Below, piece by piece: positions 36,701 through 54,703 of a DNA stretch of 62,545 bases; position 1 is the stretch's first letter, and the number at the start of each line of letters is the position of its first letter. Source of the DNA: Coriobacteriales bacterium (GTDB lineage: Bacteria; Actinomycetota; Coriobacteriia; Coriobacteriales; UMGS124). The stretch is from assembly GCA_017515595.1 (NCBI GenBank), contig JAFWFL010000025.1, forward strand, positions 1-62,545, written 5' to 3'. The notes under the pieces are model-generated. The model did not search any database and had not been told where the DNA came from. It was given only the letters and a program-made list of their open reading frames with translations. The position numbers were made by a program, and so were the translations under genes.

Positions 36701-37312
36701 AGGCCTGAGCCGGCGCGTAAGTTCACGGTGCAAATCCAGAGCGCGGTTGAGATTCTCATCCATAGATGCAAGGCGTTTAACTGCTTTTTCGCGCCTGCGC
36801 TTATGTTTTGATATGCCGGCGGCTTCTTCTATGAGCGACCTGCGTTCCTGAGGCCTGCTCATGAGAATCTGATCAAGCTTGCCCTGGCTAATGATTGAAT
36901 GGGTGTCTTTGCCAAGACCGGTATCATGAAGAATGTCGGTGATGTCAAGCAGACGCGCGGGTGCGCCGTTAATAAGATACTCGCTCTCGCCTGAACGGTA
37001 CATTCTTCTTGTAATGGCAACTTCTTCAAAATCAACGGGAAGCACATGGTCAGAGTTGTCGAGAACCAAATCGACTTCTGCGACGTTCACCGGATTTCGC
37101 GATGAAGAGCCGGCAAATACAACATCTTCCATGGCAGCTCCGCGAAGCTGCTTTGCGCTTTGTTCACCCAAAACCCAGAGGATTGCATCGCTTACATTTG
37201 ACTTACCCGAGCCGTTTGGCCCCACAATAACCGTAAGGCCACGCTCGAGCTCAAGCTGAACTCTGTCGGCAAACGACTTAAATCCTTTGAGTTTGAGCGA
37301 TTTTAGGTACAC
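33767..37312 (-). CDS. smc: Chromosome segregation protein SMC
   Basis: GFKSF, GPNGSGKSN, coiled coils with hinge, LSGGE, LDEVEAALD. Confidence 0.97.
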   Translation of the reverse strand: MYLKSLKLKGFKSFADRVQLELERGLTVIVGPNGSGKSNVSDAILWVLGEQSAKQLRGAAMEDVVFAGSSSRNPVNVAEVDLVLDNSDHVLPVDFEEVAITRRMYRSGESEYLINGAPARLLDITDILHDTGLGKDTHSIISQGKLDQILMSRPQERRSLIEEAAGISKHKRRREKAVKRLASMDENLNRALDLHRELTRRLRPLERQVDRTQRYNNISQRITELRVALAVDDLRQLQVQWNAAEAQEKEARAQLELAEYQSKERSKELDNLQVMLEERGIYVGDLLEQRRRAQSLAERFDAAKRVLEEKQRSMNARRTTLQTSIDSSQRRLKDIREERIDSQAKLDEGEGEILALTSQMQEASQQLQEARTKRKSAEDALREANANAKEAQRIFNANTVALTKARAEADNARVQRELYKTRIENARDSLAQAKLDREKALTKQNDSTHAKEAAEKTLAEASTGVSQARSLYEEKQRAYDDARTLCLKTKARLDGLISMRGAETGTASAVQKTEKYLNNEQIPYKRLSQVISAPPELEAVTEVLLGEALNGFAVEQGQTFEQVLQQIVSTYKTGSGKVCISGYSDNALSRDNKGQQDRLIDLLHIEEGYEEVFEGILGNVVVADSWESALSQAQNNSGTRFITRDGLVVMEGATADVGIAQGVHTGVLERERTIKELNSELEKEAKSEEDLKQELDKVQAELEAAREAYEDASKQNALVQGEFKAAVAEYERNCALVTRLEREHDQIQAQYDALLQHTEDYAAKAEQAQTELDAAKERLDASNDAAAEAQEAFENARREDGIAHGRHNECQVALARVQERTKSLRNRFERLQKDEASCVEEDTKNKKAFDELTAKCCRIAPLEQRLNELEDLAKEYLAQLKDKTRLAEADSAALKQAIEAAKLSANQASQAYTEALTLNTDIKVKKGRLDERIQETVRQITSQRGVILEEALMLPELEDRAQDEAELSELEEQLETIGPVNQVAMEEYTELKERSAYIDEQVADLKHARTDLNKIIAAIDKRMRASFYETFDQVNKNFIDVFSMLFPGGNGHLELIDGEDPDTCGIEVIAQPQGKRVTKMSLLSGGERSLTALGLLFAVYRTRTVPFYVLDEVEAALDDSNLDRLLAAIDILREKTQLIVISHQRRTMERADVLYGVSMQADGVSRVVSQRLDRHGNVVDI

Positions 37313-51888: not shown

Positions 51889-52263
51889 ATGCCCCGTTAT
51901 GACTATCGCTGTACCGAATGTAATCATGTGTTTGAGGTTACACACGGAATGAAAGAACACCCAGACATTCTTTGCCCCGAGTGCGGTGCCGCCGCAACGC
52001 GCGTATTTGATGTCAGCGGTATTATTCTTAAAGGCAGCGGCTTTTATAATACTGACCAGCGCGGCAAAAAGGGAGCTACCCCTGCCACCGCCGCACCTGA
52101 AGAAAAGAATTCTTCAAACGAGGATTCGATTAAAACTGATTCCGCTCAAAAGGACAGCTCATCTTCTCAGAAGAAGAATGAAGGCTCTAAACCCACTTCT
52201 CAAGATACCGGTTCATCTTCTAAAACTTCAGAAAAGACATCGACCACAAAAAAGGAAGCATAA
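51889..52263 (+). CDS. FmdB-family zinc-ribbon protein with Ser/Thr/Lys-rich tail
   Basis: MPRYDYRCTEC...CPECG...KGSGFYNTD. Confidence 0.9.
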   Translation: MPRYDYRCTECNHVFEVTHGMKEHPDILCPECGAAATRVFDVSGIILKGSGFYNTDQRGKKGATPATAAPEEKNSSNEDSIKTDSAQKDSSSSQKKNEGSKPTSQDTGSSSKTSEKTSTTKKEA

Positions 52264-53108
52264 TGGACGCCGGGCCCGGTCAACCCCCTGTTGCATCTGA
52301 ATCTGTACAAAGCGACCTCGAACGCTTGCAAACAGAGATTTCTCAATACCCGAGTCTTCTGGTGGCTTTCTCCGGCGGAGTCGATTCTTCGCTCTTGCTT
52401 AAGGTCGCCCATGATGTACTGGGCGATCACGTTGTTGCCGCAACCGTAGAGGGCGTCACTCTCCCCTCGGGCGAGGCTGACCTTGCCCGGCTATTCTGCG
52501 AAGACTACAATATTCGCCATATAGAGCTCAGCATTGATGAACTCTCTTTTGAGGGCTTTGCTCAGAACCCGCCAAACCGGTGCTACCTTTGCAAGCGTGA
52601 GATATTTAGCGCGCTCAAAGAAGCTGCTTGTAAGCTTGGTATACAAACGGTAGCAGAAGGCTCGAATCTTGATGACATGGGCGATTACCGTCCCGGGATG
52701 AAAGCTGTCACCGAACTTGGCATTGTAAGCCCGCTCCGCAACGCCGGCCTTACCAAAAAACGTATTCGCGCATGCGCAAAGGCTCTTGGCCTCAAAGTAT
52801 GGAATAAACCATCTCTTGCTTGCTTAGCCTCTCGCTTTGCTTACGGAGAAACCCTTACCAAGCAAAAATTCGAACAAGTCGATGCTGCCGAGAAATGCTT
52901 ACGGGGACTTGGTCTCAGCCAAGTCCGAGTACGGGTTACCGGCTCAGATGCGCGTATAGAAGCTTTGCCTTCTGAGTTTGATCTTCTCATTCACAACGAT
53001 ATGCCTCATATCATAGGCCAAACACTTAAAGAGCTTGGGTTTACTCATGTATCGCTTGATTTGTTAGGGTATCGCACTGGGAGCATGAACGAGGGTCTCA
53101 CGCGGTAA
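52263..53108 (+). CDS. larE: ATP-dependent sulfur transferase LarE family
   Basis: AFSGGVDS PP-loop, RCYLCK, DYRPG, KPSLACLASR, RVR, GYRTGSMN. Confidence 0.88.
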   Translation: MDAGPGQPPVASESVQSDLERLQTEISQYPSLLVAFSGGVDSSLLLKVAHDVLGDHVVAATVEGVTLPSGEADLARLFCEDYNIRHIELSIDELSFEGFAQNPPNRCYLCKREIFSALKEAACKLGIQTVAEGSNLDDMGDYRPGMKAVTELGIVSPLRNAGLTKKRIRACAKALGLKVWNKPSLACLASRFAYGETLTKQKFEQVDAAEKCLRGLGLSQVRVRVTGSDARIEALPSEFDLLIHNDMPHIIGQTLKELGFTHVSLDLLGYRTGSMNEGLTR

Positions 53109-53325
53109 TTATGTTTTTAAGAATTGAAGAAAGACTTCTGAAAGAGGATACCTATCTTCTCCTCGCTAGCCTGCCGCGGGTTGCGTGTACGACGCGGTTC
53201 CCATACTACTAGTGAGTCTTTTCTACTCGTGCCGTGTCTATGCAACCGCGCGTACAGAGACGCTCGGATAAGATAGGTATCCTCTTTCAGAAGTCTTTCT
53301 TCAATTCTTAAAAACATAATTACCG
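53103..53325. repeat. Perfect 56-bp inverted repeat enclosing a structured 111-bp core (possible MITE/REP-like or invertible element)
   Basis: 53103-53158 is the exact reverse complement of 53270-53325. Confidence 0.95.
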
Positions 53326-53332
53326 GGACGTT

Positions 53333-54703
53333 TTACTGAGGCTGCTTTGTAAGAACAGCGCAGAAATGGCCGTCACAGGATGTTTTTGAGGGATAAGTGC
53401 GCATGTAGCCTTCAGGTGTTGAAACTGATTGGAGCTCTTGTCTAAGGGGTTCTGAAGAAGCTCGTTCGGATATGGGATCAATTACAAAACCTTTTCCCTC
53501 TTCAGAATTCAAAAACGCATCAATAACATCTTCATTTTCTTGACGGAGGATCGAGCAGGTAGAGTAAATAAGGCTTCCGCTGCTGTTCAAATGCTTGGCA
53601 ACACTTTTTAACATCTTTACTTGTAAAGCTGCACATGAGTCAACATCGTTTGGGGTAAGAGACCAAACTATTTCAGGGTGACGGCGCAGCGTACCGGTGC
53701 CTGTACAGGGAGCGTCAACAAGTATGCGATCGAATGCATCAGGGAGTTCTTGCCAAACTTCTTCTTGGCAGATATCACCGGTATACCATGAGACACCGGT
53801 CATGCCGTTTAATTCAAAGCGCTCTGAGGCAATGTTTGCTTTGTGATCGTGGATATCAACGGCGCAAATATGCGCTTCTGACGCAAATCTATTGGCATGA
53901 GACATCATGAGAAGGCTTTTTGTGCCTCTGCCGCTGCCTACTTCTAGCATTTGCTCGCTGTGTTTTGGCGCTGCTATATATGCTACTGTCTGAGCTGCAT
54001 AGTCGCTTACAACTGCGTAATTGTCTTTGAAAAGTTTGCAGGTACTAATACGCTCAGGATTTTGTATAAGAAATGCTCCGGGTATTTCACCGCAGGGGAC
54101 AGTATGTAAACCTTCAGCTTCAAACTGAGCTTGTGCTGAGACGGCAGGAATGCATGGTTCCAAGGCTGCTACATAAATGGGAGGTTCATTGAGAAGCGAT
54201 TCGCTTAAAGCTTTTGCTCGTTCTTCTGTGCAATCTTCGATAATCCTCTTAAAAATCCAACTGGGAAGGCCGTATTTTGCTTCCGGGTTTGATTCAAAAA
54301 AGGTTTCACGGTTTTGGGCTATTTTGCGCAGTACGGCATTTGCCAGACCGGCAGCGCTTTTTGTATGCAATCTCACAAGTTCAACGCCTTGACTTACGGC
54401 AACATGTGCAGGCTTCTCGAGATACAGCAGTTCATAGGCAGAAATGCGCAGGGCTTCTCGTACTGATGTATCTAGTTTTGATGGTTTGGCAACATAGTTG
54501 TCAATTATCTCATCAAGGGTTCCTTTGGCGGCTTCGCAACCGAGAGCTAGTTTGCGTGCGAAAGCAGCGTCTGACTCTTGTAAGCCTTGAAGCTGTTGCG
54601 TGCCAAAAGGAGAATTTAATACCTCACGCACATAGGCATTGCGCTCGTGGGCATGGCATAAAACATTGTATGCACTTTTACGGGCGCTCGAAAGTTGGGC
54701 CAT
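53333..54703 (-). CDS. rsmB: 16S rRNA m5C967 methyltransferase RsmB/Sun (NusB-like plus MTase domains)
   Basis: NusB-like N-terminus (NAVLR), DAPCTGTG, YSTCS, DGHF; follows fmt. Confidence 0.88.
   Translation of the reverse strand: MAQLSSARKSAYNVLCHAHERNAYVREVLNSPFGTQQLQGLQESDAAFARKLALGCEAAKGTLDEIIDNYVAKPSKLDTSVREALRISAYELLYLEKPAHVAVSQGVELVRLHTKSAAGLANAVLRKIAQNRETFFESNPEAKYGLPSWIFKRIIEDCTEERAKALSESLLNEPPIYVAALEPCIPAVSAQAQFEAEGLHTVPCGEIPGAFLIQNPERISTCKLFKDNYAVVSDYAAQTVAYIAAPKHSEQMLEVGSGRGTKSLLMMSHANRFASEAHICAVDIHDHKANIASERFELNGMTGVSWYTGDICQEEVWQELPDAFDRILVDAPCTGTGTLRRHPEIVWSLTPNDVDSCAALQVKMLKSVAKHLNSSGSLIYSTCSILRQENEDVIDAFLNSEEGKGFVIDPISERASSEPLRQELQSVSTPEGYMRTYPSKTSCDGHFCAVLTKQPQ

Follow-up and report, generated by a model that had tools for sequence, protein, structure and literature searches.

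A hairpin repeat with a conserved core and copy-specific perfect arms beside rsmB in a Coriobacteriales genome

The gap between two convergent genes, rsmB and a 281-aa open reading frame (ORF) provisionally called larE, in contig JAFWFL010000025.1 of a Coriobacteriales bacterium (assembly GCA_017515595.1) is occupied by a fold-back element whose two long arms are exact reverse complements of each other. The window analysed here is the whole contig of 62,545 nt, designated C51, which belongs to an assembly (G000) of 3.30 Mb in 134 contigs with 48.9% GC and 97.7% completeness. Comparison with the rest of the genome revealed that this fold-back is one of three copies of a hairpin repeat, named cl6, with a conserved core and outer arms that differ from locus to locus. 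The interpretation favoured here, to which we attach about even confidence, is that the fold-back is a genuine chromosomal feature and a copy of a non-autonomous repeat similar to repetitive extragenic palindromic (REP) sequences and REPINs, the arms of which are kept perfect, and have probably been lengthened, by template switching of a folded-back strand. The cl6 repeat is lineage-restricted and non-coding, and it is best filed as a variant within the kind formed by REPs, REPINs and MITEs (miniature inverted-repeat transposable elements), outside any named family.

The fold-back and its copies in the genome

The element (53103-53325) fills nearly the whole of the 224 nt that separate the stop codons of the two convergent genes, and its right arm ends 7 nt before the end of rsmB. 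An exact-match scan confirmed the two 56-nt arms that had been described in the original prediction, with a 111-nt spacer between them. A repeat finder delimited arms of 60 nt (53103-53162 and 53266-53325) that are 98% complementary, lie 103 nt apart and contain one mismatch; pairing thus extends inward to 53266 with a single C/T mismatch of 53159 against 53269. Among the other perfect inverted repeats of the 62.5-kb window, the longest measure 18 nt and number two, in agreement with the earlier claim that the arms are far longer than any terminator present here. The contrast in composition that had been pointed out also holds, with GC values of 0.30 for the arms and 0.59 for the core against 0.487 for the window. 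When folded as RNA, the plus strand reaches -136.6 kcal/mol (z -15.4), a value that none of 200 shuffled sequences equals, and the minus strand reaches -133.2 kcal/mol (z -16.8). A direct target-site duplication, which had been reported as lacking at the larE/rsmB site, is not visible at any of the three copies.

The nature of the element was manifested when core and arms were compared separately, as the original prediction had recommended: the core proved to be conserved and present in three copies (on contigs C51, C20 and C100), and the outer arms proved to be specific to each locus. The core, 103-113 nt in length, matches C20:32443-32563 with 91% identity and C100:27160-27328 with 75-76% identity, and the inner stem of about 28 nt is homologous as well. 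Since these inner 28 nt are shared between copies, the inner arms belong to the element itself. The outer portions of the perfect arms (28 nt in C51, 48 nt in C20 and 12 nt in C100) are unique to their loci and have no other match in the genome; for the outer left arm of the C51 copy the only other genome matches are chance ones of at most 21 nt. Within the core, an internal loop sits at the base of the imperfect inner helix and is composed of two invariant, mutually non-complementary strands, CCTCGCTAGCCTGCCG on the 5' side and CGTACAGAGACGCTCGGA on the 3' side. Three core pairs have undergone compensatory changes (columns 47/122, 50/118 and 63/108), and both sides have changed at 13 of the 58 predicted pairs. 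Between the inner arms of C51 and C100 there are 8 differences in 28 positions, every one of which is mirrored in the opposite arm, whereas those of C51 and C20 are barely alignable (14 of 28 positions) despite the 91% identity of their cores.

Conservation resumes directly outside the right arm, where all three copies carry a tail formed by three to five variable nucleotides and GTTTTACNGAGG. This last sequence occurs five times in the 3.3-Mb genome (about 1.6 occurrences are expected), three of them at the elements and two within coding regions, about as many as chance would give. In C51 and C100 the convergent gene has its stop codon in the TTA of the tail, and its last residues, Q-P-Q/L, are encoded by the tail; at the larE/rsmB locus this TTA corresponds to 53333-53335 on the minus strand and rsmB ends in Q-P-Q-stop. 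In C20, the GGAGG of the tail is located 6 nt ahead of the start codon of the next gene. The three copies are placed at the stop codon of the upstream gene and co-oriented with it, the left arm starting 6 or 11 nt inside the gene end or 8 nt past the stop. The neighbours of the three copies are unrelated housekeeping genes, those of C20 encoding isocitrate dehydrogenase and an AddB-like nuclease, and those of C100 an acyltransferase and a thioredoxin-reductase-like protein.

The original prediction held that the arms include host gene sequence. It is true that the left arm opens with CGG TAA, the last codon and the stop of the 281-aa ORF, but these 6 nt belong to a variable C-terminal tail and the inner 28 nt are the element's own. 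Homologues of the upstream ORF at the loci of 11 relatives have in common the stretch ...GYR[TS]GS[ML][ND]..., which is followed by 0-14 variable residues, and the arm therefore begins within the variable tail of the protein. On the other side, the RsmB proteins of the relatives align to residues 448-454 of 456, with one exception that aligns to residue 414 and whose locus is cut at the contig start. Regarding the names of the two genes, rsmB was corroborated by Pfam (Methyltr_RsmB-F, 2.2e-37; NusB, 8.7e-21); the upstream ORF obtained weak PP-loop matches in Pfam, and larE stays a label of the original prediction.

A decayed half-copy of cl6 was also detected at C26:32884-32932. It consists of the inner left arm and the first 30 nt of the core, with 78% identity, has no partner arm and is situated directly after a GCCGAGAAGCCC hairpin.

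Searches beyond this genome agree with the restricted distribution of the repeat. BLAST found the element in none of 60 relatives, and the covariance model R1 found it in none of 18 same-family genomes; with its filters off this model scores any long hairpin, which makes it unfit for establishing homology between families. The gapped 25-base pattern GCTAGCCTGCC-N60-90-GTACAGAGACGCTC had no matches in genome_contigs and metagenome_contigs, and the 20-mer adjoining the element gave one chance match, on an unrelated contig of 68% GC. No empty site was recovered among the relatives, in which RsmB is at most 51% identical, larE does not adjoin rsmB and only ordinary hairpins of 14-19 nt are found downstream of rsmB. 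A literature search, with supplementary files outside its scope, retrieved no description of a conserved core flanked by copy-specific perfect arms.

Several other identities were considered and discarded. A known RNA family was ruled out by scans with Rfam 15, since the region around the element (52900-53500) gave best scores of 8.6-15.4 bits against cut-offs of 50-315, none of them on the core; 12 other hairpin loci gave sub-threshold microRNA-precursor matches only. A coding role was excluded because no ORF is common to the three copies and the 66-aa minus-strand ORF at 53117-53317 is not conserved. Capture of phage DNA was rejected as the arms of C51 and C20 have no match in 50,697 phage records, and mirroring of tRNA ends was rejected as none of 50 tRNA or tmRNA genes overlaps an arm. 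The left-flank motif ATGNNCGAGGGT common to C51 and C20 is a coincidence, given that in C51 it encodes a family-conserved ...MNEG. The sequence GTTTYTGTTT, present at the outer arm ends of several families, was dismissed as a dispersed terminus (51 matches, mostly unrelated ones, where about 13 are expected). A resemblance between the loop strands of cl6 and those of another palindrome family of the genome, cl5, was noticed by eye only and is unsupported by any test.

Table 1. Coordinates of the fold-back, its flanking genes, the arms of its two other copies and the Y1_Tnp genes (positions without a contig name refer to the window)
Feature	Position	Strand	Description
Outer left arm	53103..53130	+	28 nt, locus-unique; perfectly complementary to 53298-53325
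Inner left arm	53131..53158	+	28 nt, homologous in three copies (alignments A1, A3)
Conserved core	53159..53269	+	Imperfect hairpin, GC 0.59, variable tip
Right arm	53270..53325	+	Exact reverse complement of 53103-53158
Unpaired 3' tail	53326..53345	+	Spacer GGAC, then GTTTTACTGAGG, then CTGC
Upstream ORF (larE in the original prediction)	52263..53108	+	281 aa, co-oriented with the element
Convergent rsmB	53333..54703	-	456 aa; stop and last three codons inside the element's tail
Perfect arms of the C20 copy	C20:32376-32451 and C20:32555-32630		76 nt
Perfect arms of the C100 copy	C100:27148-27187 and C100:27301-27340		40 nt
Y1_Tnp gene	C105:19251-20051		
Y1_Tnp gene	C122:12176-13102		
Y1_Tnp gene	C42:20221-20985		
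Y1_Tnp gene	C4:10604-11341		
Y1_Tnp gene	C4:23104-23859		
Y1_Tnp gene	C16:13368-14132		

Proposed maintenance of the arms by fold-back copying

It had been reasoned in the original prediction that perfect identity between the arms needs either a recent origin or active homogenization. This reasoning is right, and the data obtained across the genome favour homogenization. A scan for perfect inverted repeats with arms within 700 nt of each other returned 190 non-overlapping repeats of at least 20 nt, 89 of at least 30 nt and 55 of at least 40 nt, the longest being 107 nt. Their loops define families of 37, 29, 16, 11, 8, 6 and 3 members, the last one containing the larE/rsmB element. In the family of 37 members (cl0), there are 25 elements with arms of at least 36 nt, and all of them are internally perfect over 36-94 nt; the nearest arm of another element shares 31-88% of the positions. 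The cl0 elements of C92 and C119, for instance, have 41-nt cores that differ at one position and arms that match at 47 of 57 aligned positions. The inner arms of cl6 behave likewise. Because neither the wobbles and transitional mismatches expected from selection for pairing nor the near-identical copies expected from recent transposition are observed, the perfection appears to be maintained rather than young, and the perfection of its arms does not show that the larE/rsmB element is of recent origin. At their outer ends, 83 of the 89 repeats of at least 30 nt have no imperfect extension of the arms, and in 65 of the 76 contig-internal ones the following 60 nt are free of any remaining inverted homology. 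At the C119 element the REP is complete on one side and the opposite side bears its inverted copy in truncated form, a polarity that fits directional copying and suggests it as a single anecdote.

In E. coli, DNA is reportedly cleaved at palindromes by the SbcCD nuclease. A search of the present assembly for SbcD (TIGR00619) gave no match (best E 0.017; 97.7% complete draft), and 18 of 20 relatives have one; SbcC is represented by a weak match only (24.9 bits) in a 1194-aa frame, at 36827-37300 of the window. Template switching is described as making quasipalindromes perfect because the nascent strand copies itself (PMC7202029). A mechanism of this type may be envisaged for cl6. The element would have spread in trans as single-stranded DNA recognised by a protein through the bulged core. 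During replication the nascent strand would snap back on the inner stem and the first arm would template the second one, in an intramolecular switch of the quasipalindrome type. Copying would proceed from the inner stem outward, in such a way that the core would never be "corrected" and mismatches in the arms would be erased, and any overshoot would write an inverted copy of the flank and thereby add locus-specific sequence to the stem. The resulting long palindromes would be able to persist once SbcCD was lost. Any effect on larE and rsmB, through a very stable 3' hairpin and the supply of stop or last codons, would be a by-product of a type known for REPs.

A number of observations weigh against this interpretation. 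There are only three copies, and mobility, an empty site or polymorphism between strains were not seen, nor was template switching directly observed in this genome. The more distant core, that of C100, carries arms that are closer to those of C51 than the arms of C20 are, and this mismatch between core and arm similarity is not predicted by plain descent with homogenization. A copying error at the DNA level has no reason to halt the arm near the upstream stop codon, as occurs in the three copies. Failure to find SbcCD in a 97.7% complete draft does not prove its loss; moreover, one relative (G004) also lacks an SbcD match and yet has no inverted repeats of at least 30 nt in 440 kb, which means that loss of SbcCD is insufficient and could be permissive at most. 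No cognate enzyme was found, the flanks of the six RAYT-like genes of this genome (RAYT, REP-associated tyrosine transposase) showing REPs of the GGGGACGG type and others, without the cl6 core or arms. None of the cl6 arms contains a REP hairpin, and a GGGGACG-like stretch is kept only in the C20 arm and is degenerate in C51 and C100. With respect to the assembly, the read evidence comes from Logan contigs and not from raw reads, no contig spans the whole element, and 13 of the 89 long-armed elements of the genome touch contig ends; at least one of these looks like a fold-back assembly path, so that some of the genome-wide counts are inflated.

These last points are also what speaks for an assembly artefact, in which a de Bruijn fold-back path would have created the palindrome or two imperfect arms would have been smoothed into one. 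The clearest case is C61, where a 107-nt "arm" includes 72 nt of the 3' end of an ORF and stops at the contig end. Palindromes that run to contig ends are located at C61:4115-4388, C114:1, C56:1, C60:3, C33:3, C38:1, C57:1 and C62:1, and they are probably fold-back assembly paths and not biology. The three cl6 copies, however, are well removed from contig ends and have a common architecture that includes the tail outside the arm, and their junctions were recovered from independent samples. A contig of an independent study covers 53033-53177 (the gene end, the left arm and the start of the core) with two differences, and the same study supplied a further contig in which the C100 arm is joined to the core. 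A second sample gave a contig linking the core with the C20 arm, and in another sample a contig begins at 53328, immediately past the right arm. Single mismatches are retained inside other long arms (C107:28280, C79, C66 and C62), and hence the perfection of the arms is not simply the product of smoothing by the assembler. Based on the shared three-copy architecture, the internal position in the contigs and the junctions in other samples, an artefact is unlikely at the larE/rsmB element, and an explanation of the repeat in these terms seems barely credible. A Logan RNA run yielded no contig over the element and is uninformative either way.

A broader and more tentative proposal, which we consider possible rather than likely, is that such elements are "self-zipping" palindromes. 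A bulged core with a short stem would land at a gene end, and fold-back switching would recopy the arms, overshoot into the flank and build perfect, locus-specific stems until selection on the neighbouring genes stops the process; in this genome, with about 190 palindromes and stems of up to about 100 bp, the process would have become runaway after the loss of SbcCD. Repeats would then evolve in a general and undescribed way that is distinct from transposition. If the favoured interpretation holds, the identity of the arms in bacterial palindromes is unusable as a clock for recent insertion. A palindrome-rich genome without detectable SbcCD, beside relatives that bear SbcD and are poor in palindromes, represents a natural experiment on the limits imposed on palindromes. 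At a practical level, such elements disrupt assemblies made from short reads and give rise to contig ends that fold back, and they equip the ends of housekeeping genes with hairpins of great stability, with stop codons and even with ribosome-binding sites.

Relation to known repeats and rival explanations

The closest parallel of cl6 is found in the REP/REPIN repeats. According to a study on REPs (Di Nocera et al. 2013, PMC3733652), these sequences lie less than 20 bp from the ends of both convergent ORFs, give ORFs their stop codons and, as dimers, are in some cases embedded in long palindromes. For REPINs, compensatory changes are reported as common in the hairpins, and the excised intermediate is asymmetric, its return to symmetry being left unexplained (Bertels & Rainey 2011, PMC3116915). 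Like them, cl6 is a short, non-coding, extragenic hairpin at the 3' ends of genes that touches convergent ORFs and supplies stop codons, it shows compensatory changes and asymmetric ends, and the same genome contains RAYT-like genes with REP hairpins. Unlike REPINs, in which the outer REPs are conserved and the spacer is variable, cl6 has a conserved centre and a copy-specific outer stem; its outer arms are unique to each copy, devoid of REP hairpins and perfect over 40-76 nt. Neither the cl6 core nor its arms adjoin any RAYT gene, and cl6 amounts to three copies and one decayed half-copy, versus the tens to hundreds of copies of REPIN populations. Template switching at quasipalindromes (the Ripley model, studied by the Lovett laboratory) would account for the perfection of the arms, their sharp ends and the fact that the centre is left untouched; it is described (PMC7202029) as a hotspot of point mutation at short repeats in E. 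coli, and is not known as a process that would maintain and extend hundreds of stems of 30-100 bp in a repeat family.

Among other known systems, bacterial MITEs include Correia/CREE, ERIC, RUP and the IS200/IS605-derived PATEs. Such elements resemble cl6 in being small, non-autonomous, intergenic, able to fold into hairpins and dependent on a transposase supplied in trans, but their terminal inverted repeats are conserved and direct target duplications are usual, whereas the termini of cl6 differ between copies and no direct repeat flanks it. In comparison with an IS200/IS605-type PATE, cl6 has one central bulged hairpin instead of two subterminal ones; it also carries a conserved asymmetric tail containing TTAC at 3-5 nt outside the right arm in the three copies. 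No IS200-type or TnpB gene is associated with cl6 as judged from the six Y1_Tnp genes and a TnpB scan of the genome, in which TnpB gave no match above the cut-off. Neither is cl6 an ordinary intrinsic terminator, since its outer stem is AT-rich (GC 0.30) and only four U follow, after a gap of 4-6 nt and on one strand; a terminator scan, which counts only loops of 3-8 nt, called nothing at the element.

Among the rival explanations, two concern the origin of the arms. It may be, although we regard it as rather unlikely, that copying of the flank is an obligatory part of insertion, so that a core with a few stem nucleotides and the tail would integrate at a gene end and, for example by hairpin-primed fill-in, the inverted upstream flank would be written between core and tail. 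This would explain why the outer arms are unique in the genome, variable in length (40, 56 and 76 nt) and sharp-ended, why the tail is always found just outside the right arm, as expected for a copy placed between inner stem and tail, and why the arms of C20 are quite different from those of C51 despite the similarity of the cores; the one-sided truncated REP copy of C119 is consistent with it too. However, the gene sequence demonstrable in the arms comprises only 6 and 11 nt and falls within variable C-terminal tails, the tRNA and tmRNA genes are free of overlaps with the arms, no fresh insertion was seen, and in cl0 the arms are homologous over at least 50 nt and yet no two copies are alike. 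The mirrored changes in the homologous inner 28 nt mean, in addition, that homogenization in place is needed anyway. A quite improbable alternative reverses the order of events: the core would be a mobile hairpin module that enters the single-stranded tip of pre-existing palindromes, REPIN-like ones for example, the arms being the old palindrome. "Empty" perfect hairpins, with arms of 30-103 nt and loops of 2-21 nt, do exist in the genome, the cl0 core is found between REPs of different types, and REP dimers inside long palindromes are mentioned in the REP study (PMC3733652). Against it, no hairpin or repeat elsewhere in the genome matches the cl6 arms, C51 and C100 are homologous for a further 28 nt past the core, conservation of the core is accompanied by that of the tail outside the arm, and the origin of unique and perfect pre-existing palindromes would be left unexplained. 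Both alternatives keep some weight because the arm boundary is within about 10 nt of the stop codon in the three copies, because C51 and C20 combine near-identical cores with unrelated outer arms, and because of the conserved tail, which may be an element end, a cleavage site or a target, and of the internal loop, which a protein may read.

The other two rivals attribute a function to the structure. The element could be kept mainly for an action as RNA, either as a 3'-untranslated-region (3'-UTR) hairpin that ends or stabilizes the upstream mRNA or as double-stranded RNA cut by RNase III that insulates the convergent transcripts, with the internal loop as a putative protein site. That each of the three copies starts at the stop of the upstream gene and has its orientation, that the U4 stretch appears 4-6 nt past the hairpin on the strand of the upstream gene only, and that the core has compensatory pairs and, on the plus strand, some G-U pairs is consistent with this idea, as is the activity in 3' UTRs reported for REPs (PMC3733652). 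Still, it is improbable: no canonical terminator was called (by a scan restricted to the short loops indicated above), the folding energies of the core are similar on both strands, the three contexts are unrelated housekeeping genes and Rfam gave no match, while arms of 40-76 bp with neither a mismatch nor a wobble cannot result from selection on RNA. The original prediction had also considered an invertible switch, in which the 56-nt inverted arms would let the 111-nt core flip and alter the readout on either side. The geometry permits such an inversion, but the core has the same orientation with respect to the tail and the upstream gene in the three copies, and three junction contigs of other samples match the assembly, bearing in mind that contigs drop rare variants; no promoter-like site was called and none of the six Y1 transposase genes is on contig C51. 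A switch is therefore highly improbable.

Palindromes and RAYT-like genes across the genome

The suggestion that the fold-back constitutes an undescribed system was not sustained, since the genome contains about 190 perfect palindromes, of which this is one, together with six RAYT-like transposases and REP-like hairpins. Many of the palindromes are plain REP doublets, that is, two inverted small hairpins with a GGGGACGGTTCT-type loop, and the same type of motif is present inside many arms. Representative palindromes are located at C56:29582-29806, C9:4821-5142 and C107:26119-26434. Perfect inverted repeats of at least 30 nt reach 30.3 per Mb here versus 0 in 800 kb of five same-family genomes (G001, G004, G005, G012 and G013). 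These five genomes have a GC content of 63-68%, against 48.9% here, which represents a large composition shift specific to this lineage.

The six Y1_Tnp genes (Table 1) encode proteins of about 240-265 aa where the start could be set. The best NCBIfam fit of three of the six, those that were scanned, is "REP-associated tyrosine transposase", with 58-70 bits against a cut-off of 80. REP-like hairpins (stem-GGGGACGGTTCT-stem or variants of it) are found on both sides of four of the six genes and only downstream of another one, and the sixth gene has a different palindrome on both sides; each gene has a hairpin type of its own. In the RAYT-like genes, a C-terminal ...RQIxRLTG... stretch looks helix-turn-helix-like when read by eye, with no domain match.

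Two 12-mers, GCCGAGAAACCC and GCCGAGAAGCCC, occur 153 and 146 times, respectively; they make up terminator-like hairpins and also the cores of several palindrome families. In the cl5 family, copies of a 112-nt core are located at C9:4821-5142, C75:6655-6904, C126:23637-23884, C20:89315-89530, C88:8428-8681 and C128:2072-2249. The cl5 boxes CTGCGGAAC and GCTCARACAGTCCTCGC are also found in the GC-rich relative G004 (L065:15247-15328) within a hairpin with 19-nt arms, in swapped order, as if this two-stranded loop had been closed at its opposite end; in G001 (L045) there is a partial look-alike only. The cl5-type element of C128, which is GC-rich, is contained entirely within a 1027-aa frame, and a cl0 element, C47:27747-27903, lies within a 231-aa frame; both may be in-frame intragenic insertions or the frames may be spurious ORFs. 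At C115:1945-2141 and C130:983-1169, both convergent ORFs extend 4-12 nt into the two arms of the palindrome and, because the arms mirror each other, both genes at C115 end with the same ATG TGA.

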